A stretch of DNA of 39,643 nt from a phage, in sequence record PZ386960.1; one strand, given 5' to 3'. Numbering within the stretch: the stretch's first letter is position 1; every line of letters begins with the position of its first letter. Positions 1-38,637 of this stretch are shown here, piece by piece. The notes under the pieces were generated by a model, which made no database searches, was not told the origin of the DNA, and saw only the letters and a list, made by a program, of their open reading frames with translations. The position numbers were made by a program, and so were the translations under genes.

Positions 1-1761
1 ATGGCACAATCCCAAGAAGCTAAGAACGCGCTAATCATTGCGCAACTTAAGGGTGACTTCGTGGCCTTCCTGTTCGTCTTATGGAAGGCTCTGAACTTAC
101 CTAAACCAACCAAGTGTCAGATTGATATGGCACGCACACTCGCTAACGGCGACCACAAGAAGTTTATCCTTCAGGCGTTCCGTGGTATCGGCAAGTCCTT
201 TATCACCTGTGCGTTCGTCGTGTGGGTCTTATGGCGCGACCCTCAACTTAAGGTTCTCATCGTGTCTGCCTCTAAGGAACGTGCGGATGCTAACTCCATC
301 TTCATCAAGAACATCATTGACCTGCTGCCGTTCCTTGCTGAGTTGAAACCTCGACCGGGACAGCGTGACTCCGTGATTAGCTTTGACGTAGGCTTGGCGA
401 AACCCGACCACTCACCTTCTGTGAAGTCTGTAGGTATTACTGGTCAGTTGACTGGTAGCCGTGCTGACATCATTATCGCAGATGACGTTGAGGTTCCCGG
501 TAATAGCTCTACTAGCTCCGCTCGTGAGAAGCTGTGGACATTGGTTACTGAGTTTGCTGCGTTGCTTAAGCCTCTTCCTACTAGCCGTGTTATCTACCTT
601 GGGACACCCCAAACCGAGATGACACTCTACAAGGAACTGGAAGACAACAAAGGGTACTCTACGGTAATCTGGCCTGCACAGTATCCACGCAACGACGCTG
701 AGGCTCTCTACTATGGCGACCGCTTGGCTCCTATGCTGAAGGCTGAGTACGATGAAGGCTTTGAGTTACTACGTGGTCAACCTACTGACCCTGTTCGATT
801 CGATATGGATGACCTCCGTGAACGTGAACTCGAATATGGTAAAGCTGGTTATACGTTACAGTTCATGCTCAACCCTAACCTGTCCGATTCTGAGAAGTAC
901 CCGCTGAGGCTCCGTGATGCCATTGTGTGCGCAGTGGACACTGAACGTGCCCCATTGTCCTACCAGTGGTTGCCGAACCGTCAGAACCGCAATGAGGAAC
1001 TTCCTAACGTGGGTCTGAAGGGTGACGACATTCACAGCTTCCATGTGTGTTCCTCTAAGACCGCTGAGTACCAGCAAAAGATTCTCGTCATTGACCCATC
1101 TGGTCGTGGTAAGGATGAAACGGGTTACGCAGTCCTCTACACCCTGAACGGCTACATCTACTTGATGGAAGTCGGTGGGTTCCGTGGTGGCTACGATGAC
1201 CCTACCCTAGAGAAGCTCGCTAAGAAGGCCAAGCAGTGGAAGGTACAGACGGTCGTACACGAGAGTAACTTCGGTGATGGTATGTTCGGTAAGGTATTCT
1301 CTCCGGTTCTCCTGAAGCACCACAAGTGTGCCTTAGAAGAGATTCGTGCTCGTGGCATGAAGGAGATGCGTATCTGCGATACTATCGAACCGTTGATGGG
1401 TGCACACCGCCTTATCATCCGTGACGAAGTAATCCGTGAGGACTACCAGACCGCTCGTGACCTCGATGGGAAACATGATGTTCGCTACAGTGCGTTCTAT
1501 CAGATGACCCGTATGACTCGTGAGAAGGGCGCTGTGGCACATGATGACCGACTTGATGCTATCGCATTGGGTATCGAGTTCCTTCGTGAAGGGATGCAGG
1601 TGGACTCTAAGGTAGGCGAAGAAGCCATGACCCTTGAGTTCCTTGAACACCACATGGAGAAACCTATCGTCGGTGGTGACATGGCTCGTGAGTTGGTGTC
1701 TGGAGGTGTGGACATCTACTATGAGGACGATGGCGATGGAGAGTGCTTCATTGAGTGGTAA
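1..1761 (+). CDS. gp19: Terminase large subunit (DNA maturase B)
   Basis: 586-aa ORF, same length as T7 gp19 and similar throughout as recalled ([26 protein letters not shown], GIGKS P-loop-like motif). The window 3' end supplies AAGGAG upstream if the sequence is circularised. Confidence 0.95.
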
Positions 1762-1895
1762 TTAGATAAATATGCAGGAAAGGTGCATAGGTAATCACAC
1801 AAGGTGCTCCCAAAGGCCTTGTGGTTACTTTGTGTACATAGTGCTGTAACTGTATGTTTCTATTGGGGTTATAGAGGAGTTCACCTGTGGATAAT

Positions 1896-2926: not shown

Positions 2927-2999
2927 TGTCTAATTATAATCCCTTCCTTATAGGCTAACTTAAAGACTACTTAAAGATAACTTAAAGTCTAACTAAGGG

Positions 3000-3028
3000 T
3001 TGACTCTAAGAAACAGCTATGTTCTAAT
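3000..3028 (+). promoter_or_regulatory. Host sigma70 early promoter (A1-like)
   Basis: TTGACT, 17-nt spacer, TCTAAT; preceded by ACTTAAAG repeats as upstream of T7 A1. Confidence 0.55.
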
Positions 3029-3135
3029 GGCTACCAGTTGAGAGACACAACGCTAACAACTACCAGACAAGACCTAGAGTTATCTGGTAAGGCTGAAGGG
3101 TCTCAAGTAGTCATCAACCAGACATACGAAAGTGG

Positions 3136-3164
3136 TTGACTCAACGAAAGCAATAACGTAGTAT
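3136..3164 (+). promoter_or_regulatory. Host sigma70 early promoter (A2-like)
   Basis: TTGACT, 17-nt spacer, TAGTAT. Confidence 0.5.
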
Positions 3165-3231
3165 AGCAGTCGTCAACAACTGGTCGCCCTCTGAAACAAC
3201 ATGAGGTGTCACGGTGAGAAACAAAAAGTAG

Positions 3232-3261
3232 TTGACAAGTAGTAGCGATAAGATGTAAGAT
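3232..3261 (+). promoter_or_regulatory. Host sigma70 early promoter (A3-like)
   Basis: TTGACA, 18-nt spacer, TAAGAT. Confidence 0.55.
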
Positions 3262-3446
3262 GTACGACATAACGTTCTCGTGAAGTCCCACACTGAAAGG
3301 GACTCGGTGCTAACAAACCTGCACTTAAAGCTCTTTAACAATTTGGATAATAAGCACTCTTGAGATGACGACAACAGCGATTAACTCAAGGTGACTCGAA
3401 AGAGAAGCCTTTATGATAATCACTGCAACCACATAAGGTAATCATC

Positions 3447-4263: not shown

Positions 4264-5367
4264 ATGAACTACACCGACATTCAGGCACGTCTGGCAATCA
4301 TCGAGTCACTCCCGATTAGCGAACTGGACAAGCGCCAGCCTCTTCTGGTTGCACTGGCTGCTGACATCGTGAACGGTGAGACAAGCGATGGCAACGACAC
4401 AGACGGGTCGCAGGGTCTTGAGTATCAGGACTGGTGGCACACTTTGGGTGCACTGATGCGTGATGCAGGTTTCCGCATGCTGGGTAATGGTCACTTCAGT
4501 GCAGCCTACTCGCACGAAATGTTACCGGGTCGAGTCATCAAGGTTGGCTTTAAGAAAGAGGATTCAGGCGCTGCATACACTGCATTCTGTAGGATGCACC
4601 AAGGCCGAGCGGGTATCCCTAACGTCTATCACGTAGCACGTCATGCAGGTTGCTACACAGTGGTGCTCGATAGGCTTCATAGCTGTGACCGCTACGCTAA
4701 CGATGTTCACGCAAAGTATGCAAGTGCTGCGCAGGAGTTCATTGAGTGCACTGGAGGTGATGCCGATTGGTACGCACAGTATGTTAGCAAGGAGTTCATT
4801 GAGACATGCAAGATGATTCGTGAGTTCTTCCACGGTATTGCATCTTTCGACATGCACAGCGGGAACATTATGTTCGATGACAACGATGTCCCGTACATCA
4901 CTGACCCGGTTAGTTTCTCACATGACCGTGAACGTGAGGACGGTTTCCCTCTGGACCCTGATGCACTGATTGCCGAGGTCGAGGCGATAGCTAACGAGCG
5001 CATCATTGAACGTTGCCGCATCCGCAAGGCAAAGTGTGACCCTAACGGAACCTTTCAGGTTAACCGCAAGGCCGCAATGAAACGCCGCAAGCGCAACCGT
5101 AAGTTACGTGCTAAACATGCAGCGGAAGGAATGCAACAGTTTGTCAAAGAGCGTCTTGAGCGTAGAGCTATTGGCCGAAATGAACGCCGTGCTGAGATGT
5201 TCATGGGGTCTGGCTGGCACGACTTCTGGTTACGCAATGGTAACACACTGGTACGCAAGGTTGAACAAGTGAACGGCCTCAAGTGGCAACTAGGGGACCG
5301 CCTCGCAATACAGGCTGGTCGCCCTTTGAACATCGACAAGGTACTTGACGCTCAACTGATGGGCTGA
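4264..5367 (+). CDS. gp0.7: Ser/Thr protein kinase and host transcription shutoff protein
   Basis: 367 aa; ELDKRQ, GNGHFSAAYSH, VIKVGFKKEDSGAAYTAFCRM, GIASFDMHSGNIMF, YITDPVSFS match T7/T3 0.7. Confidence 0.93.
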   Translation: MNYTDIQARLAIIESLPISELDKRQPLLVALAADIVNGETSDGNDTDGSQGLEYQDWWHTLGALMRDAGFRMLGNGHFSAAYSHEMLPGRVIKVGFKKEDSGAAYTAFCRMHQGRAGIPNVYHVARHAGCYTVVLDRLHSCDRYANDVHAKYASAAQEFIECTGGDADWYAQYVSKEFIETCKMIREFFHGIASFDMHSGNIMFDDNDVPYITDPVSFSHDREREDGFPLDPDALIAEVEAIANERIIERCRIRKAKCDPNGTFQVNRKAAMKRRKRNRKLRAKHAAEGMQQFVKERLERRAIGRNERRAEMFMGSGWHDFWLRNGNTLVRKVEQVNGLKWQLGDRLAIQAGRPLNIDKVLDAQLMG

Positions 5368-5371
5368 TAAG

Positions 5372-5412
5372 GTGTATCTTCAAGGTCGGCACTAACTGCT
5401 GGCCTTCATAGA
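5372..5412 (+). promoter_or_regulatory. RNase III-type processing hairpin (R1-like) upstream of gene 1
   Basis: CAAGGTCGGCACTAACTGCTGGCCTTCAT forms an imperfect stem with G-U pairs; related to the conserved element at 8751, 9270 and 16319. Confidence 0.45.
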
Positions 5413-5439
5413 TAAACTTTCTTAACAACGAGGCACACA

Positions 5440-9349: not shown

Positions 9350-10381
9350 ATGGAAATCACATTCAAGACTAACCCTTTTAAAGCTGTATCCTACGTTGAG
9401 TCTGCCATTAAGAAAGCACTCGACAAAGCTGGCTACCTGATTGCTGACACTAAGCATGATGGTGTACGTGGTAACATCGTGGTTGACAATACGGCTGACT
9501 GCCTGTGGCTATCCCGTGTCTCTAAGACCATCCCCGCGCTTGAGCACCTTAATGGGTTCGACCAACGCTGGGCTAATGTTCTCAAAGATGACCGCTGGAT
9601 TTTCCCTGATGGCTTCATGCTGGATGGTGAATTGATGGTCAAAGGCGTAGACTTCAACACAGGGTCTGGCCTACTGCGTACCAAGTGGCTCAAGAAGACA
9701 AACTGTGAATTTGATATTGGTGGAGTAGAACCCCTCAAGGGGAGTAAAGTAGACTTCTGCTTAGACCCTAAGAAACTTAAGGTTGTACTGTATGCTGCTA
9801 TGCCGTATCACGATATGGTAGAAGGCAAAGAGTACGGCGTTATGTCACTCCTGATGCAAGAGCATGTGCGTTCCCTCATTCCTGTTCTTAGTGAACACTT
9901 CCCGGAAATCACTTGGGAACTATCTGAGGCCAAAGAAGTCTACGACATGGTAGAACTTCAGGAACTCTACGAGAAAGCCCGTGCTGAAGGTCATGAAGGT
10001 CTGGTCGTCAAAGACCCGCTGGAAGTCTACAAGCGTGGCAAGAAGTCTGGCTGGTGGAAGATGAAGCCTGAGAATGAAGCTGATGGTATTATCGTTGGTA
10101 TCAATTGGGGGACTAAAGGTCTCGCTAATGAAGGCAAAGTGATTGGCTTCGAGGTTCTCTTGGAGTCCGGTCGTGTAGTCTCTGCCAACAACATTAGTCA
10201 AGCGTTGATGGATGAGTTTACCGCTGCCGTAAAACATGCTGAGTCTGTGGGTATGGGTATGCCGTACACTGGCTTCGCCTGTCAGGTAGCCTACATGGAG
10301 GAAACTCCAGACGGTTCTCTGCGTCACCCATCGTTCGTTATGTTCCGTGGTGTAGAGTCAGACCCAACGGTCAAGATGTAA
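9350..10381 (+). CDS. gp1.3: ATP-dependent DNA ligase
   Basis: 343 aa; strong similarity to T7 ligase (KTNPFKAVSYVESAIKKALD, active-site K in TKHDGVRG, KSGWWKMKPENEADGII, SLRHPSFVMFRG). Confidence 0.95.
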   Translation: MEITFKTNPFKAVSYVESAIKKALDKAGYLIADTKHDGVRGNIVVDNTADCLWLSRVSKTIPALEHLNGFDQRWANVLKDDRWIFPDGFMLDGELMVKGVDFNTGSGLLRTKWLKKTNCEFDIGGVEPLKGSKVDFCLDPKKLKVVLYAAMPYHDMVEGKEYGVMSLLMQEHVRSLIPVLSEHFPEITWELSEAKEVYDMVELQELYEKARAEGHEGLVVKDPLEVYKRGKKSGWWKMKPENEADGIIVGINWGTKGLANEGKVIGFEVLLESGRVVSANNISQALMDEFTAAVKHAESVGMGMPYTGFACQVAYMEETPDGSLRHPSFVMFRGVESDPTVKM

Positions 10382-11506: not shown

Positions 11507-11526
11507 TAGGACTCACTAATGGGAGA
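11504..11526 (+). promoter_or_regulatory. Phage RNAP promoter (phi2.5-like)
   Basis: TAATAGGACTCACTAAT-GGGAGAC followed by a 5' stem-loop. Confidence 0.8.
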
Positions 11527-11574
11527 CACTAACGTTTCCCGCTTTTAACTTTCAGAAACTAAAGGAGAATCATT

Positions 11575-12273
11575 ATGGCATTCGCAAAACGTAAAGTATT
11601 CACTTCCGCTCGTGGTGTTGCTGAACCGTACTGCTATCTGGCAAAGCCGGACTTCGGTAGCGGTGACTTCAAGAACGAACGTGGTGTCTACAAAGTATCA
11701 CTGACTGTATCCAACGACGACCCGCGCTGTCAGAAAATGATTGACGAGATTGTCGAAGCCCATGAGACGGACTATGCTGCTCGACTCGAAGAGTACGAAG
11801 CGAACCCGCCGAAAGTTGTCAAGGGTAAGAAACCGCTGAAGCCATATGTTGGCGACATGCCTTTCATGGATAACGAAGATGGAACCACTACGTTCAACTT
11901 CAAGTGCTACGGCTCGTTCACTGACAAGAAGACTGGTGAGAACAAACCAATCGACTTGGCTATCGTGGACTCCAAGGGCAAGCGCATTCGTGGTGAACGT
12001 CCAGCTATCTCTGGTGGCTCTGAACTGAAAATCAAATACACCCTGTTCCCTTACGGTTGGTCTGCTGTAGCAGGTGCTTCCGTTAAGCTGCAACTGGATT
12101 CTGTGATGCTGATTAAGCTGGTCGAGTTCGGTGGTGGTGATGACGATTGGTCAGATGAAATCGAAGAAGATGGCTACGAAGCTGATGAAGCACAGACCCG
12201 CAAGCCGCAGAACGACTCTGGCTGGGATGAAGAACCAGAAGAGGATGATGAAGACGAAGATGGTGACTTCTAA
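11575..12273 (+). CDS. gp2.5: Single-stranded DNA-binding protein
   Basis: 232 aa (same as T7); FTSARGVAEPYCYLAKPD, PRCQKMIDEIV, acidic C-terminal tail ending DEDGDF. Confidence 0.95.
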   Translation: MAFAKRKVFTSARGVAEPYCYLAKPDFGSGDFKNERGVYKVSLTVSNDDPRCQKMIDEIVEAHETDYAARLEEYEANPPKVVKGKKPLKPYVGDMPFMDNEDGTTTFNFKCYGSFTDKKTGENKPIDLAIVDSKGKRIRGERPAISGGSELKIKYTLFPYGWSAVAGASVKLQLDSVMLIKLVEFGGGDDDWSDEIEEDGYEADEAQTRKPQNDSGWDEEPEEDDEDEDGDF

Positions 12274-12726
12274 ATGACACTTAAGGAGAAACTGGAGGCT
12301 TACTCTAAAGTATCTCCTACTGGCTGCTGGGAGTGGCAACGCTCTCGGCTACCTTCTGGCTATGGACTCATATCTATAGGACACCAGAAGCAAGCATACA
12401 CACACCGAGTGTCTTACCAAGAGTTTCATGGAGAAATTCCTGAGGGTCTTGTTGTTAGACATAAATGTGATAACCCTTGTTGTTGTAACCCTGAACATCT
12501 TGAGGTTGGTACTCACAAAGATAACATGCAGGACTGCAAGAAACGAGGACGCATGGTGATGCCGCCAGTACATGTAGGAGAAGCTAATCACAAGACTAAG
12601 CTGACCGAGAGTGACGTCGAGTTCATTCTGAAATCTGATAAGACGCTAAAGGAACTTGCTGAGATGTTCGGAGTTACTCCACAAGCAATACGTTGGAGGA
12701 AGAGTCATGGCAGGTTACGGCGCTAA
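12274..12726 (+). CDS. HNH homing endonuclease-like protein
   Basis: 150 aa; HKCDNPCCCNPEHLEVGTHKDNMQD HNH/zinc motif; ATG overlaps the 2.5 stop; 3' end overlaps the gene 3 start by 20 nt. Confidence 0.8.
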   Translation: MTLKEKLEAYSKVSPTGCWEWQRSRLPSGYGLISIGHQKQAYTHRVSYQEFHGEIPEGLVVRHKCDNPCCCNPEHLEVGTHKDNMQDCKKRGRMVMPPVHVGEANHKTKLTESDVEFILKSDKTLKELAEMFGVTPQAIRWRKSHGRLRR

Positions 12727-13156
12727 AGGAATCAAGAAGGTAGGCATCTACCGAAGTGGGCTTGAAGAGAAGAACATGAAACTCTTAGAGTCAAAGGGTG
12801 TTAAAGCTGAGTACGAAATGTGGAGAGTACCTTATGTGGTTCCCGCAAGTAATCATCATTACACACCAGACATTTTATTACCTAACGGTATCTTTGTGGA
12901 GACTAAAGGCTTATGGGAAAGTGACGACCGCAAGAAACACTTGCTGATTCGTGAACAGTATCCTGAACTGGACATCCGTCTGGTCTTTTCAAGCAGTCGC
13001 ACCAAGATTTACAAGGGGTCGCCGACAAGCTACGCTGAATACTGTGAGAAGCACGGCATCTTATTTGCTGATAAGCTGATTCCAGTAGAGTGGCTTAAGG
13101 AAGCACCCCGGTCTGTACCGTTTGATAAACTAAAGACCAAGAAGGAGAAGAAATAA
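12707..13156 (+). CDS. gp3: Endonuclease I (Holliday junction resolvase)
   Basis: 149 aa from MAGYGAKG; GGAGGA SD; PDxxLPNGIFVETKGLWESDDRKKHLLIREQ matches T7 gp3. The listed ORF is an N-terminally extended version. Confidence 0.92.
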   Translation: MAGYGAKGIKKVGIYRSGLEEKNMKLLESKGVKAEYEMWRVPYVVPASNHHYTPDILLPNGIFVETKGLWESDDRKKHLLIREQYPELDIRLVFSSSRTKIYKGSPTSYAEYCEKHGILFADKLIPVEWLKEAPRSVPFDKLKTKKEKK

Positions 13157-13611
13157 TGCCAAAGGTACAATTCAAACCAAGAACTTCTACAGAAGCAATC
13201 TTTGTACACTGTAGTGCTACCAAAGCAACAATGAACATTGGTGTTCGTGAGATTAGTCAGTGGCACAAGGAACAGGGGTGGTTAGCAATTGGCTATCATT
13301 TTGTTATTCGCCGTGATGGTACAATCGAAGAAGGCCGTCCGGTCGATGTCGTTGGGTCTCACGTTAAGGACTGGAACAGTAAGTCAGTCGGTGTGTGCCT
13401 CGTTGGTGGTATCGACGATAAGGGCAGACACGAAGCTAACTTTACGCCAGCACAGATGCACTCTCTTAAAGAGAAACTGGCAGACCTGAAAGACCTGTAC
13501 CCGGATGCAGAAATCAAAGCACACCACGATGTGGCCCCTAAAGCGTGTCCAAGTTTTAACTTGAGTCGCTGGCTGAAGACTGGTGAATTAGTAACAAGCG
13601 ATTGGGGTTAA
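13156..13611 (+). CDS. gp3.5: Lysozyme / N-acetylmuramoyl-L-alanine amidase (RNAP inhibitor)
   Basis: 151 aa, same length as T7 lysozyme; FVHCSATK, GYHFVIRRDG, AHHDVAPKACPSF. Confidence 0.95.
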   Translation: MPKVQFKPRTSTEAIFVHCSATKATMNIGVREISQWHKEQGWLAIGYHFVIRRDGTIEEGRPVDVVGSHVKDWNSKSVGVCLVGGIDDKGRHEANFTPAQMHSLKEKLADLKDLYPDAEIKAHHDVAPKACPSFNLSRWLKTGELVTSDWG

Positions 13612-13631
13612 TAGAACTCACTATGGGAGGA
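13609..13631 (+). promoter_or_regulatory. Phage RNAP promoter (phi3.8-like)
   Basis: TAATAGAACTCACTAT-GGGAGG followed by the hairpin GGGAGGACCGAAAGGTTTCTCCC. Confidence 0.7.
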
Positions 13632-13681
13632 CCGAAAGGTTTCTCCCTTTGTTCGCTAAAATTGTATAAGGAGTAACCACT

Positions 13682-15485
<1,804 letters not shown>

Positions 15486-15541
15486 GTGCTTGACTCCAGA
15501 ACAGGAGTACACTTATGGTCACTGGAATAAAGATGGTAAAT

Positions 15542-15564
15542 AAATACAACTCACTAATGGGACA
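15542..15564 (+). promoter_or_regulatory. Phage RNAP promoter (phi4.3-like)
   Basis: AAATACAACTCACTAAT-GGGACAG followed by the hairpin GGGACAGACACTCTGTTCCC. Confidence 0.7.
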
Positions 15565-16834: not shown

Positions 16835-18949
16835 ATGTTACTATCCGACATCGAAACAAACGGGTTGCTGCACAACGTTAGTCAATTTCACTGTGCGGTG
16901 ACTTACGACTACACAACTGACCAGTACATCCGTTACCGACCTGATGACTTTGGGGCGTACATTGATGCGCTCGAAGCTGAGGTTGCGCGTGGTGGTCTCA
17001 TTGTGTTCCACAACGGTCACAAGTATGACATCCCGGTAATCGAGTTGCTCGCCAAGAAACTGTTAGGACGTGACGTTAAGTTCCCGAAAGAGAACGTCTT
17101 GGACACCTTAGTGATGTCACGCTTGATTTACTCTAACATCAAAGACACCGATGCTGGTCTGCTACGTTCTGGCAAGCTGCCGGGTAAACGTTTTGGTTCC
17201 CACGCTCTGGAGGCTTGGGGTTATCGCTTAGGCGAAATGAAGGGTGAGTACAAGGACGACTTCAAGGCTTCACTGGCTGAGTCTGGTGAAGAATATGTTG
17301 ATGGGATGGAGTGGTTGCTGTTCAACGAAGACATGATGGAATATAACGTTCAAGACGTTGTAGTAACCAAGGCTCTCTTCGAGAAACTCTGTAGTAACAC
17401 TTTCTACTTCCCTAACGAGACACCCGCTGGAAGCACAGAAGCAGACCGTTTCTGGAATGGTAGCCTTGAGGCTGTCAAACTGGAACACGATGCTGCATGG
17501 TTGTTAGCCAAGATGGAACGTAACGGTTTCCCTATTGACATCAAGTCCTTAGAGAACCTGTACGCAGAACTCGCTGGTAGACGTGGTGAGCTACTCGTAG
17601 AGTTAACCAATACGTTTGGCTCATGGTACTCCGCTAAGGGTGGTACTGAAGCATTCAGGCATCCTCGTACCGGAAAGCCGCTCACCAAGTATCCTCGTGT
17701 GAAGTACCCGAAACAGGGTGGCATCTTTAAGAAGCCTAAGAACAAGAAGCAACGTGAAGGCTTAGAGCCGTGCGAGTTGGACACTCGTGATTATGTAGAG
17801 GGTGCTCCGTATACTCCGGTTGAGCACGTTGTGTTTAACCCCGCTAGTCGTGACCACATCACTCGTGTGCTTACCAAAGCTGGCTGGGTGCCCGTTGAGT
17901 TCACTCCGAGTGGTGCACCAAAGGTAGACGATGAGGTCTTAGAGCACGTTAAGGTAGACGACCCTGATGCACAGCGTTGTATTGAGTTGATTAAAGAATA
18001 CCTTATGATTCAGAAACGTATCGGTCAGGTTGCTGAGGGTGATAACGGCTGGCTCCGAATGATTGGAGAAGACGGTCGTATTCACGGAAGCGTTAACCCG
18101 AACGGTGCGGTAACTGGTCGTGCAACTCATAGTTTCCCTAACGTGGCACAGGTGCCTTCAATCCGTGCTGCATATGGCGAACCTTGCCGTGCTGCTTTCG
18201 GTGCTGAGCACAACATGAAAGATGGTAAGCCAGACCCTTGGATTCAAGTTGGTGTGGATGCGTCCGGCCTTGAGCTACGCTGCTTGGGTCACTTCATGTA
18301 TCGCTATGATGAGGGTGAGTACGTTGAGACCATCCTAACTGGTGACATCCATACGAAGAACCAATTGGCTGCGGGTCTACCAACTCGTGACAACGCTAAG
18401 ACATTTATCTATGGGTTCCTCTATGGTGCTGGCGCTGCAAAGATAGGACAGATTGTTGGTGGTACTGCCGAAGATGGTAAGCGACTCATCAAGAACTTCC
18501 TTGAGCAAACTCCGGCTATCGCTGCACTACGTGAAGCAATCACAGGGACACTCGTCAAGGACTCTAAGTGGGTTGGTGGTGAACAGAAAGTAACTTGGAA
18601 GCGCCGTTGGGTCCGTGGCTTGGATGGTCGTAAAGTCCACGTCCGTAGTCCTCACGCTGCGTTGAACACCTTGTTGCAGTCTGCTGGTGCTCTTATTTGT
18701 AAACTGTGGATTGTCGAGACTGAACGTCTGTTACTGGAAGCTGGCCTGAAGCATGGCTGGGATGGTGACTTTGCGTACATGGCTTGGGTTCACGATGAAA
18801 TTCAGGTCGCTGCAAGGACTCAAGAGATTGCCGATAAGATTGTCGAGTTGGCACAGCAAGCAATGCGTAATGTGGGAGACCACTTTAACTTTAGATGTCA
18901 GTTAGATACCGAAGGTAAGACTGGCGCAAACTGGAAGGATTGTCACTAA
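16835..18949 (+). CDS. gp5: DNA polymerase (family A) with 3'-5' exonuclease
   Basis: 704 aa, same as T7 DNAP; colinear including the thioredoxin-binding insert (HPRTGKPLTKYPRVKYPKQGGIFKKPKNKKQREG) and the C-terminal DEIQV region. Confidence 0.98.
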   Translation: MLLSDIETNGLLHNVSQFHCAVTYDYTTDQYIRYRPDDFGAYIDALEAEVARGGLIVFHNGHKYDIPVIELLAKKLLGRDVKFPKENVLDTLVMSRLIYSNIKDTDAGLLRSGKLPGKRFGSHALEAWGYRLGEMKGEYKDDFKASLAESGEEYVDGMEWLLFNEDMMEYNVQDVVVTKALFEKLCSNTFYFPNETPAGSTEADRFWNGSLEAVKLEHDAAWLLAKMERNGFPIDIKSLENLYAELAGRRGELLVELTNTFGSWYSAKGGTEAFRHPRTGKPLTKYPRVKYPKQGGIFKKPKNKKQREGLEPCELDTRDYVEGAPYTPVEHVVFNPASRDHITRVLTKAGWVPVEFTPSGAPKVDDEVLEHVKVDDPDAQRCIELIKEYLMIQKRIGQVAEGDNGWLRMIGEDGRIHGSVNPNGAVTGRATHSFPNVAQVPSIRAAYGEPCRAAFGAEHNMKDGKPDPWIQVGVDASGLELRCLGHFMYRYDEGEYVETILTGDIHTKNQLAAGLPTRDNAKTFIYGFLYGAGAAKIGQIVGGTAEDGKRLIKNFLEQTPAIAALREAITGTLVKDSKWVGGEQKVTWKRRWVRGLDGRKVHVRSPHAALNTLLQSAGALICKLWIVETERLLLEAGLKHGWDGDFAYMAWVHDEIQVAARTQEIADKIVELAQQAMRNVGDHFNFRCQLDTEGKTGANWKDCH

Positions 18950-19176
18950 TGGCTTGGAGATACAGAATACGGGAGGTGAGGCTCACTACAGGTGAGACCT
19001 TATACTACCCTCAATTTCGACACGAGTGGTTTCCATTCTGGTGCCACTTCAGGGACTACCCCGATGAGCAGAAGGTGTCGTTCACGTTCTACAGTGAAGC
19101 ATTAGAGTTTGTCAACGAATCTAAATCAAACGATGAACCTGAAGTGAAACAGGTCGTCAGAAACCACTACCTATAG
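18949..19176 (+). CDS. Hypothetical protein (gene 5.3 position)
   Basis: 75 aa from the ATG overlapping the gene 5 stop; GGAAGGA upstream; aromatic-rich. Confidence 0.45.
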   Translation: MAWRYRIREVRLTTGETLYYPQFRHEWFPFWCHFRDYPDEQKVSFTFYSEALEFVNESKSNDEPEVKQVVRNHYL

Positions 19177-19188
19177 GAGACACATATC

Positions 19189-19482
19189 ATGGCTATTACT
19201 AAACGCTTTAAAGTATCATTCGAAATGACCGTTAAGGTTGACTCTGAGACTGAAGTTATGATTCAGGAACGTATCTTAGACTTGGCTCGCAGTGTACGTG
19301 ATGGCGAGAAAGTTAGCGCACAGGACAAAGAGTTACTCGTACAGGCTCTTACTCATGGTGCCGATGGTGTTGTTGCCTTTGCTGTTAAGCAGGGCATTCG
19401 TAATGAAATCCGTGAGATGGGCATTGAGCACCACGGTGAAGGCATCAAGTTCGCACCAGCAACTATCCGTGAGGTGAAGTAA
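19189..19482 (+). CDS. gp5.5: Gene 5.5 protein (H-NS-binding in T7)
   Basis: 97 aa; MAITKRFKVSFEMTVK...PATIREV resembles T7 gp5.5. Confidence 0.8.
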   Translation: MAITKRFKVSFEMTVKVDSETEVMIQERILDLARSVRDGEKVSAQDKELLVQALTHGADGVVAFAVKQGIRNEIREMGIEHHGEGIKFAPATIREVK

Positions 19483-19691
19483 TGGGTGAATATCTTCGTG
19501 TACTGGCGGCTATCAAAAGCTGCCCTAAGACCTTTCAGTCGAACTATGTGCGCAACAATGCGTCACTGGTGGCTGAGGCTGCGAGTCGAGGTCACATATC
19601 GTGCCTATCAGTTGATGGGCGTAATGCTGGCTCTTGGGAAGTAACAGGCGCTGGCGTCCGATTCCTGAAGAAGATGGGAGGTTGCGTATGA
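19482..19691 (+). CDS. gp5.7: Gene 5.7 protein
   Basis: 69 aa; LRVLAAIKSCPKTFQSNYVRNNASLVAEAASRGHISCL is near-identical to T7 gp5.7. Confidence 0.9.
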   Translation: MGEYLRVLAAIKSCPKTFQSNYVRNNASLVAEAASRGHISCLSVDGRNAGSWEVTGAGVRFLKKMGGCV

Positions 19692-20951: not shown

Positions 20952-21200
20952 ATGTTAACCCCTATCAAGAAATACATGGAGAACCCTCAAGATATTCCTA
21001 ACGTTCCTCGTGCAACTATGGAGTATCTACAGGTTCAATATAACGCTGGATATGCTATTCAGTCTGGTCTTATCAACCGATTGAAACAAGCTGGATGGTC
21101 TGAAAGCTATATCGCCGGGTTCCTTGCTGGACTGAACTATGCGTCTCAAACTCTGGACGACATGGAGGCAATCCGTAAGGAACAGGCTGAGTCCAACTAA
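20952..21200 (+). CDS. gp6.5: Gene 6.5 protein
   Basis: 82 aa (T7 is 84); positional match; preceded by TTCTAACTTTAAGGAG. Confidence 0.7.
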   Translation: MLTPIKKYMENPQDIPNVPRATMEYLQVQYNAGYAIQSGLINRLKQAGWSESYIAGFLAGLNYASQTLDDMEAIRKEQAESN

Positions 21201-21216
21201 ATGGAGGATAGTCTAT

Positions 21217-21498
21217 ATGTGCTGGTCGCCTAAGATTAAGACACCTAAAGTTGACACTGCCAAAGTCCGTGCGGTAGACCCTGCACCACTTACTGAGGAA
21301 CCGAAAGGCATCCTCTTTGGTGGCGATGACGATACCGATAAGGACACCGGAACCTCTTCTGAGGTGCCAACTGGTGGCAAGAAGTCACTCAAGGTGAAAC
21401 TGGATGACTCCGTAGAGAAGTCCAAGAAGGCAGATTCAGATGCTGCCAAGAAGAAATCCAAGTCTGGTATTCGTACCAGTGTCTTTAAGAATAAATAA
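21217..21498 (+). CDS. gp6.7: Virion protein gp6.7
   Basis: 93 aa from MCWSPKIKTPKVDTA (T7 MCFSPKIKTPK); GGAGGA SD. Confidence 0.85.
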   Translation: MCWSPKIKTPKVDTAKVRAVDPAPLTEEPKGILFGGDDDTDKDTGTSSEVPTGGKKSLKVKLDDSVEKSKKADSDAAKKKSKSGIRTSVFKNK

Positions 21499-21512
21499 CT
21501 AGGAGGTGTATC

Positions 21513-21866
21513 ATGGGTTGGGGTAAAAAGATTAAGAAGACAGTGAAGAAGACTGTAAAGAAAATTACCAAGCCAGTCGAGAAGGCTGTAAAGCAGGTTG
21601 GTAAGGCAGGTGAAGACATCGTTAAAGGTGCTGCTAGTATTGTTGGTGGCGCTCTTGGTCAGGGTGGTAAACCTGATGTTCAGGTAATCGAACAGGCTGC
21701 TCCAGTTGCTGCACCGCCTCCGGCTCAAATCATCGAGGCTCCAACTAAGGGAGACGTAGAGACCGAAGACGAAGCACAGACCGAATCTGGCAAGAAGAAA
21801 GCCCGTGCTGGTGGTAAGAAGTCTCTGAGTGTCGCTCGTAGTTCTGGCGGTGGTCTGAATATCTAA
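21513..21866 (+). CDS. gp7.3: Tail/host-range protein gp7.3
   Basis: 117 aa; C-terminal EDEAQTESGKKKARAGGKKSLSVARSSGGGLNI is near-identical to T7 gp7.3. Confidence 0.88.
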   Translation: MGWGKKIKKTVKKTVKKITKPVEKAVKQVGKAGEDIVKGAASIVGGALGQGGKPDVQVIEQAAPVAAPPPAQIIEAPTKGDVETEDEAQTESGKKKARAGGKKSLSVARSSGGGLNI

Positions 21867-21882
21867 GTAAGGAGGTTAGCAC

Positions 21883-23490
21883 ATGGCAAGCTCACAGAAA
21901 CGTGAAGGCTTCGCTGAGAATGGTGCTAAGGCGGTGTATGACGCATTGAAGAACGACCGGAACTCATACGAAACCCGTGCGGAAAACTGTGCGAAGTACA
22001 CCATCCCTTCGTTGTTCCCTAAAGACTCTGACAACGCCTCTACTGACTATACCACTCCGTGGCAAGCAGTTGGTGCTCGTGGTCTGAACAACTTGGCCTC
22101 TAAGCTCATGCTCGCTCTGTTCCCTATGCAGACGTGGATGAAGCTGACCATCTCTGAGTTCGAAGCAAAACAACTCGTAGCGCAACCTGCGGAATTGGCT
22201 AAAGTCGAAGAAGGCTTGTCAATGGTAGAGCGCATCCTAATGAACTACATTGAGTCTAACTCCTACCGAGTGACTCTGTTTGAGACCCTTAAGCAACTGG
22301 TCGTAGCTGGCAATGCCCTGCTGTACATCCCTGAGCCTGAAGGTACTTACAATCCCATGAAGTTATACCGCCTGTCTTCTTATGTTGTCCAACGAGACGC
22401 ATTCGGCACGGTACTACAGATTGTGACCTTGGATAAGACTGCTTATGCAGCGCTGCCAGAAGACGTAAGGAACTCTATGGACTCCGGTACGGAGCACAAA
22501 GGCGATGAAATGATTGACGTGTATACTCACATTTATCTCGATGAGGAATCAGGTGAATACCTGAAGTACGAAGAGATTGATGGGGTCGAAGTTGATGGTA
22601 CAGATGCTTCTTATCCGGTGGACGCTTGTCCTTATATCCCGGTTCGCATGGTACGCATTGATGGGGAATCATATGGTCGTTCATACTGTGAGGAATACTT
22701 GGGTGACTTACGTTCACTTGAGAACCTTCAGGAAGCTATCGTTAAGATGTCAATGATTAGTGCCAAAGTTATCGGCTTGGTTAACCCTGCTGGTATCACA
22801 CAGGTTCGTCGCTTAACGAAAGCCCAAACGGGTGACTTCGTGTCTGGTCGTCCAGAAGACATCTCGTTCCTTCAGCTTGAAAAGGCTGCTGACTTCTCTG
22901 TAGCGAAAGCTGTGAGTGAACAGATTGAAGGCCGTCTGTCCTATGCCTTTATGCTTAACTCCGCTGTGCAACGTACTGGTGAGCGTGTGACTGCCGAAGA
23001 GATTCGTTATGTCGCTAGTGAACTGGAAGATACCCTTGGTGGTGTCTATTCGATTCTCTCACAGGAACTTCAGTTGCCAATGGTTCGTGTTCTGCTGAAG
23101 CAACTTCAAGCGACCAATCAGATTCCTGAGTTACCGAAAGAGGCCGTTGAGCCTACTATCAGTACCGGGATGGAAGCATTGGGTCGTGGTCAAGACCTCG
23201 ATAAGCTGGAACGCTGTATTGCTGCGTGGTCTGCGCTGGCTCCTATGCAGGGAGACCCGGACATCAACATTGCGACCATTAAGTTGCGCATTGCGAACGC
23301 TATCGGTATCGACACTTCTGGTATCCTCAAGACACCTGAAGAGAAACAACAGGAGATGGCTGAGGCTGCTCAAGGTACTGCACTGGAGAACGCTGCTGCA
23401 TCTGCTGGTGCTGGTGCTGGTGCACTTGCTACTGCAAGCCCTGATAACATGCAAGCTGCTGCTGAACAGGCTGGAATGGTTCCAAATTAA
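21883..23490 (+). CDS. gp8: Portal (head-tail connector) protein
   Basis: 535 aa (T7 is 536); colinear similarity. Confidence 0.96.
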   Translation: MASSQKREGFAENGAKAVYDALKNDRNSYETRAENCAKYTIPSLFPKDSDNASTDYTTPWQAVGARGLNNLASKLMLALFPMQTWMKLTISEFEAKQLVAQPAELAKVEEGLSMVERILMNYIESNSYRVTLFETLKQLVVAGNALLYIPEPEGTYNPMKLYRLSSYVVQRDAFGTVLQIVTLDKTAYAALPEDVRNSMDSGTEHKGDEMIDVYTHIYLDEESGEYLKYEEIDGVEVDGTDASYPVDACPYIPVRMVRIDGESYGRSYCEEYLGDLRSLENLQEAIVKMSMISAKVIGLVNPAGITQVRRLTKAQTGDFVSGRPEDISFLQLEKAADFSVAKAVSEQIEGRLSYAFMLNSAVQRTGERVTAEEIRYVASELEDTLGGVYSILSQELQLPMVRVLLKQLQATNQIPELPKEAVEPTISTGMEALGRGQDLDKLERCIAAWSALAPMQGDPDINIATIKLRIANAIGIDTSGILKTPEEKQQEMAEAAQGTALENAAASAGAGAGALATASPDNMQAAAEQAGMVPN

Positions 23491-26463: not shown

Positions 26464-28845
26464 ATGGCTCTTATTTCACAATCCGTCAAGAACCTGAAAG
26501 GCGGTATCAGTCAACAACCAGACATCTTAAGGTTCCCTGAACAGGGTGCCGAACAAATTAACGGCTGGTCGTCTGAAACTGAAGGTCTCCAGAAGAGGCC
26601 ACCTTTCATCTTTACGAAAACTATTGGTGACGCAGGGTTCCTTGGCACTGCACCTTTAGTTCACCTAATCAACCGTGATAGCGTCGAACAGTATTACGTT
26701 GTGTTCACTGGAAGCAGTGTTAAGGTGTTTGACCTGAATGGGCGCGAGTACGCTGTTCACGGAGACACCTCTTATGCTAACTGTGCGAACCCTCGTGATG
26801 ACTTGAGGATGGTCACTGTGGCAGACTACACGTTCGTAGTGAACCGCTCTAAGGTTGTTCAAGCCAACAAAGACCCTATCTACACTATTCGAGAAGATGG
26901 TGAGTGTCTCATTAACATCCGTGGTGGTCAGTATGGTCGTACCTTTACGATTAGACTGAATGGTATCTCTGCGTCCTATAAGATTGCTGATGGTGCCAAT
27001 GCCCCTGAAGTTGAACAGACTGATGCACAATGGCTCGTTAAGAAGATGGCACAGCTACTTCGAGAAGGAGGTGCAAATACTTGGGGATGGACTGTCAATG
27101 AGGGCGCTGGGTATATCCACGTTGTCTCTCGTGGTGATGAACCTATCTGGAAGGTAGAAGTAGAGGACGGCTATGGAGGTCAGTTGATGTCTGCTGTAAT
27201 GCACACCAGTCAGTCATTCAGTAAGCTACCCGCTGAGGCTCCTAATGGCTACTCTGTGCAAATCGTAGGGGACACCTCGAAGACCTCTGACGCATTCTAT
27301 GTGCAATATGATGCTGCCCGTAAGGTGTGGAAAGAAGTGGCTGGCTGGGGAGTACAGAAGGGACTCAACAATGGCACTATGCCCCATGCTCTGATTCGTC
27401 AGTCAGATGGTTCCTTTAAGATGGAAGCATTACCATGGGATGAACGCAAGTGTGGCGATATGAACACCAACCCCGACCCATCAATCGTAGACCAGAAGAT
27501 TAACGATGTGTTCTTCTTTCGCAACCGATTAGGGTTTCTTGCTGGTGAAAACATTGTGATGTCTCGTACCTCCAAGTATTTCTCACTGTTCCCTGCGTCG
27601 GTTGCCAACCTATCAGATGATGACCCAATTGACGTTGCCGTATCACACAACCGAATCAGTACGCTTAAATATGCTGTACCGTTCTCCGAAGAGTTGCTCC
27701 TATGGTCTGACCAAGCACAGTTCGTACTGTCTGCCTCTGGTATCCTCTCACCGAAGTCAGTTGAGTTGAACCTAACTACTGAGTTTGACGTGTCCGACAA
27801 AGCTCGTCCATACGGTATCGGTCGTGGTGTATACTTTGCGTCTCCACGCGCTTCCTATACGTCCATCAACCGTTACTATGCGGTACAGGATGTTAGCTCC
27901 GTGAAGTCTGCGGAGGACATGAGTGCTCACGTTCCTAGCTACATTCCTAATGGCGTGTTCTCCATTCGAGGCTCTGGCACTGAGAACTTCGTTTCGGTGT
28001 TATCTGCCAACGCCCCAAGCAAAATCTTCATGTACAAATTTCTGTACTTGAATGAGGAAAACGTGCAACAGTCGTGGTCTCATTGGGAACTAGGGAGTAA
28101 CGTAACTGTATTGGCTTGTGATTCTATTGGTTCCACCATGTACCTTCTGTTACGCAACCAGTCTCATACGTGGATGGCACGGGCACACTTCACGAAGAAC
28201 TCCATCGACTACCTTGATGAGCCTTATCGAATCTACATAGACAACAAGCTGGAAATCACCATCCCCGGTGGCTCCTATAATGATGACACCTACGAGACAG
28301 TAATATATCCCGGTCAGTTCTATGGAATGAAGACCTATCGTGGTAAGTATTACATCGTTGCGATGGATGGTAAGGTGACGTGGTTTGATGAACCTCAAGG
28401 TGGCTGGCCTAATGGGGAACCTCGCTTGGCACTCAGCGGGAACCGAGAAGGTGAAAAGGTGTACATTGGACAGGCAATCAACTTCCGATATGTATTCTCT
28501 AAGTTCCTCATCAAGAAGGCAGCGGATGATGGCTCAACGGCTACCGAGGACATTGGTCGCTTGCAGCTTCGCCGCGCATGGGTCAACTATGAGGATTCTG
28601 GTGCGTTCGTTGTGGAAGTCGAGAACACCTCACGTCTTTTCAGCTATGACATGGCAGGTGCTCGATTGGGTTCCAACGCTTTACGCTCTGGTGGACTCAA
28701 CGTCGGTACTGGTCAGTTCCGATTCCCTGTGTCCGGCAATGCCAAGCTGAACGAGGTGCGTATCATCTCTGACCACACTACACCACTTAACGTGATTGGA
28801 TGTGGATGGGAAGGAAACTACCTGCGCCGTTCTTCTGGTATCTAA
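26464..28845 (+). CDS. gp12: Tail tubular protein B
   Basis: 793 aa from MALISQSVKNLKGGISQQPD; AAGGAGG SD; T7 gp12 is 794 aa. The listed ORF is a 5'-extended version. Confidence 0.95.
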   Translation: MALISQSVKNLKGGISQQPDILRFPEQGAEQINGWSSETEGLQKRPPFIFTKTIGDAGFLGTAPLVHLINRDSVEQYYVVFTGSSVKVFDLNGREYAVHGDTSYANCANPRDDLRMVTVADYTFVVNRSKVVQANKDPIYTIREDGECLINIRGGQYGRTFTIRLNGISASYKIADGANAPEVEQTDAQWLVKKMAQLLREGGANTWGWTVNEGAGYIHVVSRGDEPIWKVEVEDGYGGQLMSAVMHTSQSFSKLPAEAPNGYSVQIVGDTSKTSDAFYVQYDAARKVWKEVAGWGVQKGLNNGTMPHALIRQSDGSFKMEALPWDERKCGDMNTNPDPSIVDQKINDVFFFRNRLGFLAGENIVMSRTSKYFSLFPASVANLSDDDPIDVAVSHNRISTLKYAVPFSEELLLWSDQAQFVLSASGILSPKSVELNLTTEFDVSDKARPYGIGRGVYFASPRASYTSINRYYAVQDVSSVKSAEDMSAHVPSYIPNGVFSIRGSGTENFVSVLSANAPSKIFMYKFLYLNEENVQQSWSHWELGSNVTVLACDSIGSTMYLLLRNQSHTWMARAHFTKNSIDYLDEPYRIYIDNKLEITIPGGSYNDDTYETVIYPGQFYGMKTYRGKYYIVAMDGKVTWFDEPQGGWPNGEPRLALSGNREGEKVYIGQAINFRYVFSKFLIKKAADDGSTATEDIGRLQLRRAWVNYEDSGAFVVEVENTSRLFSYDMAGARLGSNALRSGGLNVGTGQFRFPVSGNAKLNEVRIISDHTTPLNVIGCGWEGNYLRRSSGI

Positions 28846-28873
28846 CCGTAAACACCCCGACTCATTTAGTGAA

Positions 28874-28896
28874 CAATACGACTCACTATTGGGAAG
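28874..28896 (+). promoter_or_regulatory. Phage RNAP promoter (phi13-like)
   Basis: CAATACGACTCACTATT-GGGAAGG. Confidence 0.85.
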
Positions 28897-28924
28897 GGGT
28901 TTTATACTATAGGAGAGAAACTCT

Positions 28925-29338
28925 ATGTTAATAATCAGACCTACCAAAGAATCAGACTTCGAGAGATTCACACCATCACCTGAAGACATCGCTGAGGCAA
29001 AAGCCTATGGTATTGAACCTTCATTTCCACCAGCCTCTGAGTGTGTCACCATGTCTCTTCATGGGATGCCTGTGGCAATTGGAGGGAACCGTGGAGACCA
29101 AGTGTGGTTCGTGACGTCTGCCCGTGTGTGGAAACTAAGCATGAAGACACGAAGAGAGTTCCGAAAGCTCATTCTGGAGTATCGTGATACCATGCTCAAA
29201 CAGTATCCGATTATCTGGAACTACGTTTGGGTCGGCAACAAGTCCCACATTAGGTTCTTGAAGTCTATTGGTGCGGTGTTCCATAATGAGTTTACTGGTG
29301 ACAGTAATCAATTCCAACTATTCACTATAGGAGGTTAA
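28925..29338 (+). CDS. gp13: Internal virion protein A
   Basis: 137 aa (T7 is 138); positional match. Confidence 0.85.
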   Translation: MLIIRPTKESDFERFTPSPEDIAEAKAYGIEPSFPPASECVTMSLHGMPVAIGGNRGDQVWFVTSARVWKLSMKTRREFRKLILEYRDTMLKQYPIIWNYVWVGNKSHIRFLKSIGAVFHNEFTGDSNQFQLFTIGG

Positions 29339-36283: not shown

Positions 36284-38056
36284 ATGGCTCTCAAGATTCG
36301 TACCGTAATGACTTATCCGCTAACAGGTGCTGTGGACTTTGCAATCACCTTTGAATACTTAGCGCGTAAGTTCGTGACGGTAACTCTAATTGGTAAAGAC
36401 CGTAAGGAACTTGTTCTCAATCAGGACTATCGGTTCACCACTAAGACACAAATAACTACAACCCGCACATGGACTGCTGCTGACGGATATGACTCTATTG
36501 AGATTCGTAGATACACCTCTGCGACTGACCGTCTGGTTGACTTTGCTGATGGCTCAATCCTTCGTGCGTATGACCTAAACATCGCACAGATTCAAACGCT
36601 TCACGTTGCCGAAGAAGCACGAGACCTCACTGCGGATACCATTGGTGTAAACAATGACGGGCACTTGGATGCTCGTGGTCGCCGTATTGTGAATGTTGCC
36701 AACCCTGTAGAAGACGGGGATGCTGTTAACTTAAGGTCACTCAAGGTGTGGAATGACTCTGCACTTAACTCTGCCAACCGAGCAAAAGAATCCGCAGAAG
36801 AAGCGAAGAGACAATCAGATTGGGCTGGGCGTATGCGAAATGAGGCAGAACAGTTCAAGAACGAGGCTAACACTCACCGAGGCGTTGCTGAGTCTGCTAA
36901 AGACCAAGCCATTGCTGCTCGTGATGTGGCTAACTCCGCTAAAGACCAAGCGTCCAATAGCCGTAGTGAGTCCTTGCGTTTCGCTGAGGAGTCCAACCAG
37001 TACATGGGGTGGGCGAAGAAGTGGGCTGTTAACCCGGTCGATGTAGTCATTCAGGATGGTGAGTTCTCTGCGAAGCACTGGCAGCACTACTCAAAGGTTG
37101 AAGCTGACCGCTCTAAGAATGAAGCTGACCGAGCAACTAACGAGGCCAACAAGTTAGGCAACATTAACGCTCTTGCTGCTGCAATCGAGAAGGTTGATGG
37201 AATACGTGTGTTCTGGAAAGGTGAGCAACATTGGGATGGACGATTGTATATGACCTCAAGTGGTTTTGACTGTGGACAGTATCAACAGTTCTTCGGTGGT
37301 GTACCTAACCGTTACTCTGTCATGGAATGGGGCGACAAGGATGGATGGCATTTGTATTCTGAGAGACAAACTGAAGGAGGTGCTCCAACACTAAGCCTGC
37401 GCGGCCACATGATTGCTGGGGGTGATATTAGATCTTCTGGAAATCAATATACCAACAACATGTTTGTACAAGACCGGGAACAATACTGGCCGGGACGAGG
37501 TGCATTCGCTAATCAGTTCAATGACAAGGATGCTCCATTTGCGAAGACTGGTCAGTTCCACGCCCCCAATGGTTACGGAGAGTACTACCCAATCGTAAAA
37601 GCATTCGTGTCAACTATTGGACACGGCTATGGCACAGTTGCTACGTTTGGTATGTTGACATCTGGCAGTGGTCGTTTTGCTAATGCGTGTATTCACGTAA
37701 TTGGAGACAACGGAACCAACGGTCTCTGGCAGTTTGACCCCAACACTGGAGAGTTCCTGTCACGCGGTGACGTTAAGGTAGGTGATGGCTGTACCATCTA
37801 CCAGAATGGGGATGTTTGGGGGACCGTTTGGGGGAGTCGACCACTCACACAGTGGTTAGGAGACCAGACTGTTAACCACATCGCTATGGGAGGTCGTAAT
37901 GATTCTCCTGTGTGGAATGCCTACGGTATTGGTGATGGAGATGGCAAGGTTATCACTGGTGTAGTTAATGGTAACGCTGATGGCGCCATTGACACAATTC
38001 AGTGGCGTGTTATGCAGTATGTTCGAAACAACGGACAGCGCTTTAATATCTACTAA
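36284..38056 (+). CDS. gp17: Tail fibre protein, mosaic: T7-like N-terminal and shaft region with a replaced distal tip
   Basis: 590 aa; residues 1 to about 350 match T7/T3 gp17 (FEYLARKF, ILRAYDLNIAQIQTLHVAEEARDL, GFDCGQYQQFFGGV.NRYSVMEWGD); the last ~230 aa are unrelated to the T7 tip as recalled. Confidence 0.92.
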   Translation: MALKIRTVMTYPLTGAVDFAITFEYLARKFVTVTLIGKDRKELVLNQDYRFTTKTQITTTRTWTAADGYDSIEIRRYTSATDRLVDFADGSILRAYDLNIAQIQTLHVAEEARDLTADTIGVNNDGHLDARGRRIVNVANPVEDGDAVNLRSLKVWNDSALNSANRAKESAEEAKRQSDWAGRMRNEAEQFKNEANTHRGVAESAKDQAIAARDVANSAKDQASNSRSESLRFAEESNQYMGWAKKWAVNPVDVVIQDGEFSAKHWQHYSKVEADRSKNEADRATNEANKLGNINALAAAIEKVDGIRVFWKGEQHWDGRLYMTSSGFDCGQYQQFFGGVPNRYSVMEWGDKDGWHLYSERQTEGGAPTLSLRGHMIAGGDIRSSGNQYTNNMFVQDREQYWPGRGAFANQFNDKDAPFAKTGQFHAPNGYGEYYPIVKAFVSTIGHGYGTVATFGMLTSGSGRFANACIHVIGDNGTNGLWQFDPNTGEFLSRGDVKVGDGCTIYQNGDVWGTVWGSRPLTQWLGDQTVNHIAMGGRNDSPVWNAYGIGDGDGKVITGVVNGNADGAIDTIQWRVMQYVRNNGQRFNIY

Positions 38057-38074
38057 TATAAAGGAGGAAACACT

Positions 38075-38599: not shown

Positions 38600-38637
38600 A
38601 CTATTAGGCCACGGATGGCTGACACTAGGAGGACATA

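Follow-up and report, generated by a model that had tools for sequence, protein, structure and literature searches.

The stretch of phage DNA analysed here (sequence record PZ386960.1; 39,643 nucleotides, referred to in full as the window) comes from a T7-like phage of the genus Berlinvirus (Studiervirinae), of the PhiV-1/ErnstBeyeler-like, Escherichia/Salmonella type. Its closest relatives overall are the Escherichia phages ErnstBeyeler, CarlSpitteler, and PhiV-1, with approximately 91-94% identity. Between gene 2.5, encoding a T7-type SSB, and gene 3, encoding endonuclease I (a Holliday junction resolvase), the window contains an ORF on the plus strand that starts with ATG and encodes a protein of 150 AA (Table 1). 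A sequence-only reading of this DNA had proposed an HNH homing endonuclease gene at this location, and the Pfam matches of both flanking proteins confirmed the identity of the neighbours between which it was placed. Since both neighbouring genes were complete across their profiles, the HNH gene is free-standing and does not lie in an intron of an interrupted gene.

The same reading had described the ORF as overlapping both neighbours, which proved correct for gene 3 and incorrect for gene 2.5: in the string TAAATG, the SSB stop codon and the HNH start codon (12274-12276) merely adjoin, with zero bases in common. At the other end, the start of gene 3, which is conserved and encodes MAGYGAK, also supplies in its +2 frame the C-terminus of the HNH protein (HGRLRR) and the HNH stop codon. 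The HNH cassette appears to carry the ribosome-binding site of gene 3 and borrows its own stop codon from that gene. The program-made ORF list gave gene 3 an earlier start, a TTG at 12656 (12656-13156), but the true start is the ATG at 12707, because Pfam positions 1-149 begin there, the GGAGGA site precedes it, and relatives are annotated in this way.

The nearest promoter-like site upstream of the SSB and HNH genes begins at 11510 and the next at 15548; none was found from 11527 to 15547, and the HNH gene is therefore most likely co-transcribed with SSB. A total of 13 promoter-like sites, defined as matches to GACTCACTAATGGGAGA with at most 3 mismatches (0.11 expected by chance), were found in the window, all on the plus strand (1902, 2910, 8102, 8726, 9251, 11510, 15548, 16381, 23494, 24479, 25829, 28880, and 36222), and these are likely phage RNA polymerase promoters. 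There was no promoter-like site in the window at the position of T7 phi3.8.

Table 1. Features at and around the SSB/gene 3 junction, with positions in the window.
Feature	Position	Strand	Basis
Promoter-like site for phage RNA polymerase, phi2.5 equivalent	11510..11526	+	consensus matches; T7 annotation
Gene 2.5, T7-type SSB	11575..12273, stop TAA 12271-12273	+	PF21265, E=2e-87, 168/169 profile positions
HNH endonuclease CDS, gene 2.8-type, free-standing	12274..12726, stop TAA 12724-12726	+	ORF list, Pfam, PHROG, homologue alignment
Insert proper, 433 nt missing from HNH-minus PhiV-1, ErnstBeyeler, and Berlin	12274..12706	+	genome comparison
Co-conversion-like patch, ~727 nt, HNH gene and 5' two-thirds of gene 3	12274..13000	+	96.4-96.6% identity to PP74/PcCB251
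TGGAGG copy 1, left end of the L056 deletion	12293..12298	+	sequence comparison
HNH_3 catalytic domain (residues 42-86)	12397..12531	+	Pfam and homologue alignment
Invariant residues of the HNH_3 domain	H63 (12460-12462), C65, C70, N72, H75, N84 (12523-12525)	+	alignment
C-terminal HTH-like putative DNA-binding region (residues 104-144)	12583..12705	+	weak HTH matches; profile colinear with I-HmuI
TGGAGG copy 2, right end of the L056 deletion	12694..12699	+	sequence comparison
GGAGGA, predicted Shine-Dalgarno for gene 3, inside the HNH ORF 3' end	12695..12700, 6 nt before ATG 12707	+	sequence
HNH/gene 3 overlap, 20 nt	12707..12726	+	sequence; same arrangement in T7 gene 2.8
Gene 3, endonuclease I (Holliday junction resolvase)	ATG 12707 to 13156	+	PF05367, 149/149 positions, E=3e-83

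The clear HNH motif that had been quoted for the ORF, HKCDNPCCCNPEHLEVGTHKDNMQD, was present as residues 63-87 of the protein, and the match to Pfam HNH_3 (PF13392) reached 64.9 bits (E=5e-18) relative to a curated cut-off of 24.8 bits, with residues 42-86 covering profile positions 2-46 of 46. PHROG families of HNH and endonuclease proteins also matched (best E=5e-35), matches in PADLOC were to "homing endonuclease" models only, and a search of NCBIfam with the protein gave no match. Alignment of 28 homologues revealed ten invariant positions (C18, G29, Y30, R45, H63, C65, C70, N72, H75, and N84), all of which were kept in the window protein, along with a conserved C-terminal motif, KLT..V..I....LA..YGV....I. 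By analogy, H63, N72, and N84 would be the catalytic residues, and C18, C65, C70, and H75 would bind zinc. The dN/dS of the gene was 0.13-0.16 in comparisons with the homologues of the Pectobacterium phages PP74 and PcCB251 and with a 78%-identical relative, a value that places the gene under purifying selection. Because dN/dS was this low and all ten invariant positions were present, the ORF is real and not a chance occurrence. Taken together with the colinearity to the homing endonuclease I-HmuI described below, these data argue for an intact, selected two-domain HNH nuclease in which an N-terminal HNH_3 domain with a Cys/His zinc site is joined to a C-terminal HTH-like region.

Homologues of the protein were found in 1,679 phage records, and the window allele was carried by only 3 of 140 phage records. 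A look-up of the exact window protein in public assemblies found it not on record, and no paralogues were found within the window. The GC content of the gene was 45.7% compared to 48.7% for the genome, which put it in the 13th percentile and not among the outliers. A single-sequence AlphaFold2 model of the protein was discarded as unusable (pLDDT 42, pTM 0.22).

Occupancy of the SSB/gene 3 junction varied between relatives, as the sequence-only reading had anticipated. In PhiV-1, ErnstBeyeler, and Berlin, gene 2.5 runs straight to gene 3 with no HNH gene. We surveyed 80 IMG/VR loci anchored on endonuclease I, 73 of which also contained SSB, and six of these 73 were occupied by HNH genes whose proteins were 97, 57, 41, 38, 36, and 35% identical to that of the window. 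All six started at the SSB stop codon or 1 nt into it, and their ends lay 20-70 nt into gene 3. The junction was home to at least four HNH lineages that were 35-57% identical to the window's and mutually no closer. The relatedness of the flanks followed a different pattern: SSB genes 97.7-99.5% identical to that of the window bordered three other states of the site, namely an HNH protein only 35% identical (L012), a T7-2.8-type HNH gene (L055), and no HNH gene at all (L056), so that HNH proteins of 35-41% identity were found beside nearly identical SSBs, while a 78%-identical HNH protein at the same junction adjoined an SSB merely 44% identical. The history of the HNH gene is incongruent with that of its flanks, which points to its horizontal spread into this junction.

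The gene 3 N-terminal allele MAGYGAKGI was present in five of the six occupied loci and also in many empty ones, and the loci were not phylogenetically independent; for these reasons a link between this allele and occupancy was set aside as evidence for a target site. The window-type gene 3 5' allele was also found without an HNH gene, in Berlin and Yep-phi. In these two phages (Berlin, L004 2209-2227; Yep-phi, L009 2482-2500), SSB and gene 3 are separated by a 19-nt spacer, TATATGATAGGGAGGTCAC; in PhiV-1-type phages there is no spacer and the two genes overlap in TAATG. The notion that the Berlin-type spacer is a scar of a T7-type gene 2.8 was unsupported, the resemblance being confined to the ribosome-binding site. 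In other Studiervirinae loci, HNH homologues with 35-41% identity to the window protein or to T7 gp2.8 were located directly after gene 3 or farther downstream (L021, L030, L032, L047, and L057 at approximately 2950-3375; L040 and L045 at approximately 5240-5433), so that the family also occupies intergenic sites nearby.

Genome comparisons placed a sharp discontinuity at the left edge of the HNH gene. Relative to PhiV-1, the window was 96% identical until 12273, where the alignment broke, then divergent to approximately 13325, and 99-100% identical thereafter. Relative to PP74 and PcCB251, identity was 74-79% in the last 100 nt of SSB and 95-98% from 12274 to approximately 13000, compared to a genome-wide average of approximately 86%, and only 0.06% (PP74) and 0.6% (PcCB251) of equal-sized segments genome-wide were as similar as this tract. 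Together with the ~300 nt at the start of gene 3, the HNH gene travels between genomes that have otherwise diverged. On the left side, the window changes over to PP74-like sequence inside the final 7 nt of SSB (GGTGACTTCTAA in the window and GGTGATTTCTAA in PP74), a switch too sharp for a PP74-like donor, and the true donor therefore appears to be unsampled. From these alignments, the HNH gene seems to have been exchanged here as one unit with the 5' part of the resolvase gene (gene 3). The patch beside the HNH gene is consistent with co-conversion, and nuclease genes are known to occur at the borders of phage recombination tracts (PMC10448857). Nevertheless, approximately 19 low-identity patches relative to PhiV-1 were scattered across the genome, so that the recombination boundary at the HNH gene could be the product of ordinary recombination, and in such a patchwork any one breakpoint is weaker evidence that a nuclease drove the exchange.

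Among the other low-identity patches relative to PhiV-1 were those at 26501-29100, 21001-21900, 18901-19600, and 1401-2000. The segment 36201-38700, which contains ORFs at 36284-38056 (590 AA) and 38075-38599 (174 AA), had a mean identity to PhiV-1 of 0.17 with unaligned bases counted; it lies at the position of the tail-fibre gene in relatives and is probably a swap of a host-range module. The window is circularly permuted with respect to the canonical T7-type map: positions 1-1798 matched PhiV-1 36998-38794 (gene 19, large terminase) and positions 1893-2489 matched the right end of PhiV-1, while position 2483 corresponded to PhiV-1 position 2, which places the genome-end junction near 2483-2489.

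One of the empty junctions preserved a record of loss. In the metagenomic contig L056 (IMGVR_UViG_3300006879_000146), positions 2469-2500 correspond to window 12274-12298 fused to 12700-12706, and the junction reads ATGACACTTAAGGAGAAACTGGAGGAAGAGTC followed directly by ATGGCAGG, which is the window gene minus exactly 401 nt. The ends of the deletion coincide with the two copies of TGGAGG listed in Table 1, and this hexamer is present in the HNH ORF only twice. The leftover ORF has 19 codons, and the ribosome-binding site of gene 3 is retained. A search for the scar found the L056 type in this one viral contig only, and none was found in phage records at high identity. Comparison of the two sequences indicates that a window-type HNH gene was lost by microhomology deletion in at least one lineage. 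Given this scar and the presence of the gene in other backbones, the gene type has both entered and left different backbones.

The proposal that the ORF represents a mobile homing insertion was thus supported by three kinds of data: the incongruence between the HNH gene and its flanks, the several divergent lineages at one junction, and the L056 scar. The HNH domain match was strong, and the gene was sporadic rather than conserved in all close relatives. The gene shows clear signs of movement between phages, but is an ordinary gene for this phage group. Based on these data, we consider it highly probable that the ORF is functional and belongs, in the same class as T7 gene 2.8 and at the same site, to the free-standing genes for homing endonucleases of the HNH (His-Me finger) type.

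A mechanism can be outlined for such a gene from the established biology of homing endonucleases and from I-HmuI. The HNH gene would share a transcript with SSB, initiated at the phi2.5-type promoter, and the position of its start codon directly at the SSB stop suggests weak translation, coupled to the termination of SSB. The target of the enzyme would be a long site in genomes without the HNH gene, located at or close to the conserved end of SSB and start of gene 3. In a mixed infection, the enzyme would nick or cut the HNH-minus genome at the gene 2.5/gene 3 junction or in the 5' end of gene 3, and T7-type recombination would then repair the break off the HNH-plus genome, copying the gene together with nearby markers. 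Harm to the phage that carries the gene would be limited by two features of the cassette, namely the low, coupled translation and the GGAGGA supplied to gene 3.

An explanation compatible with a homing origin is that the gene persists chiefly through an advantage it gives the phage, either by attenuating a DNA-break-sensing host defence, as reported for GAPS4, or by damaging competing phages. Strong purifying selection (dN/dS 0.13-0.16) would be expected from such a benefit, and in a recent preprint (bioRxiv 10.1101/2025.09.07.674715) T7 lacking genes 2.8, 3.8, and 7.7 was outcompeted only when GAPS4 was present, while a catalytically dead gp3.8 still blocked GAPS4. Phage benefit is therefore a live and non-exclusive alternative, although gp3.8 alone, and not gp2.8, was assayed singly in that work. 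A strongly beneficial gene is also a poor fit to one that is missing in most close relatives and deleted in L056, and searches of Pfam, PHROG, NCBIfam, and PADLOC gave no homology to known anti-defence proteins beyond nuclease families. We regard benefit to the phage as the main reason for retention as a possibility, though not a likely one.

It seems improbable that the gene goes back to an ancestor in which the 2.5/3 junction was already occupied and has since been lost repeatedly, with its patchy distribution due to deletions and ordinary recombination and with no present homing. The clean deletion of the window gene type in L056 would fit this history, as would the frequent mosaic recombination throughout the genome and the presence in T7, a member of another genus, of a homologue with the same site and geometry. 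However, vertical descent with loss does not yield HNH lineages 35-57% identical to the window's beside SSBs 97.7-99.5% identical, a 78%-identical HNH beside a 44%-identical SSB, or a tract of HNH and gene 3 5' sequence among the top 0.06-0.6% of the most similar segments shared with PP74 and PcCB251; moreover, the catalytic residues are still intact. Homing endonuclease genes commonly degenerate once fixed, but decay of the ORF into an inactive relic of this kind is very unlikely in view of its full length, the ten invariant positions kept, the dN/dS of 0.13-0.16, and the colinearity with I-HmuI. Finally, proteins of the general HNH domain family also include packaging-associated enzymes of the HK97 type that assist terminase, a caveat raised in PMC10448857. 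This function is effectively refuted for the window gene, and we give it almost no weight, since the gene is placed among the DNA-metabolism (class II) genes, approximately 10 kb from the terminase sequence (window 1-1798), and the closest relatives, which are viable, package their DNA with no HNH gene.

The homing endonuclease reading makes the window gene a textbook free-standing element at a known site, and as such it is already known in kind. It should be annotated as a gene 2.8-type HNH homing endonuclease and matters little beyond that, although genes of this type help explain local mosaicism in T7-like phages and may bias the inheritance of markers when therapeutic or engineered phages co-infect. 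The occupancy of the junction by multiple lineages and the presence of a deletion scar are neat, yet both are what a homing cycle would be expected to produce. Experimental homing data in Studiervirinae are, to our knowledge, scarce, and the junction offers a compact natural system for the homing cycle in this group, since a single site shows alleles without an insert, a deletion scar, and several HNH lineages in competition. More tentatively, and with rather less than even confidence, we suggest that the SSB/gene 3 junction may be a shared landing pad for at least five competing, divergent HNH lineages, at which the whole homing cycle (invasion, co-conversion of the gene 3 5' end, and loss through a 6-nt microhomology) is recorded at one site, and that purifying selection might also reflect a benefit to the phage beyond selfish spread, such as blunting GAPS4-like DNA-break-sensing defences or excluding competitors.

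Among comparable elements, the Mob and Seg genes of T4-like phages are intergenic between conserved essential genes and sporadic among relatives; they carry flanking markers along by co-conversion, and in mixed infections they lead to marker exclusion (PMC2988022 and PMC2790892). The window gene is likewise intergenic between conserved essential genes and sporadic among relatives, but it belongs to another phage group; Seg proteins have a GIY-YIG fold and Mob proteins combine HNH with a zinc-finger DNA-binding domain, and homing by Mob and Seg has been demonstrated experimentally, whereas the window protein is known here from sequence. A more distant counterpart is I-HmuI (PDB; 1U3E), the intron-encoded HNH nicking homing endonuclease of the Bacillus phage SPO1. 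The profile built from the 28 homologues matched this structure with E=7.5e-6, with profile positions 28-152 aligned to chain residues 31-162 and colinear all the way from the N-terminal DNA-contact/HNH region to the end of the match in the C-terminal HTH domain, while a phmmer search of the PDB with the single window protein gave only sub-threshold HTH matches. The profile match suggests a shared two-domain, site-specific nicking or cutting mechanism, although the likeness is remote and profile-only, I-HmuI is without the Cys-rich CDNPCCCNPEH zinc motif, and the window gene is free-standing and not encoded in a group I intron.

Close sequence matches were those in the Pectobacterium phages PP74 (APD19630) and PcCB251 (QQG33589), whose HNH proteins are of equal length, 96-97% identical in amino acids, placed at the same junction with the same gene 3 overlap, and carry existing annotations as HNH homing endonuclease or HNH motif protein. 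These phages have a different backbone, with the adjacent SSB 3' end just 74-79% identical to that of the window. They also carry more genes of this family: PP74 has a second HNH-family gene after terminase, and PcCB251 has further HNH-family ORFs after DNA polymerase and after terminase, some of these extra ORFs being annotated merely as hypothetical protein, whereas the window has one HNH gene only. The same holds in comparison with T7, which carries HNH genes 2.8, 3.8, and 7.7. These three T7 genes have been treated as homing endonucleases (bioRxiv 10.1101/2025.09.07.674715), and no experimental cleavage or homing data for T7 gp2.8 were found in the searchable literature.

The sequence-only reading had missed that the window gene belongs to the class of T7 gene 2.8 at the same site, a known kind of element. 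In T7, gene 2.5 ends at 9856, gene 2.8 (NP_041971, annotated "endonuclease") occupies 9857-10276, and gene 3 starts at 10257, so that both genes start straight after the SSB stop codon, overlap gene 3 by 20 nt, and end in HGRLRR. The two proteins could be aligned end to end with 41% identity (E=2e-33) and share the layout of HNH_3 and HTH-like regions, the window protein being 11 residues longer due to an insertion after the HNH motif. Among the T7 HNH proteins, gp2.8 gave the highest score (100 bits), followed by gp7.7 (79 bits) and gp3.8 (25 bits), with no match to gp5.3. T7-2.8-type genes proper were found in other Berlinvirus-like genomes (L055 and L011). On these alignments, the window gene represents a lineage within the family different from that of T7 gene 2.8, which is nevertheless its positional counterpart and its best counterpart in sequence.
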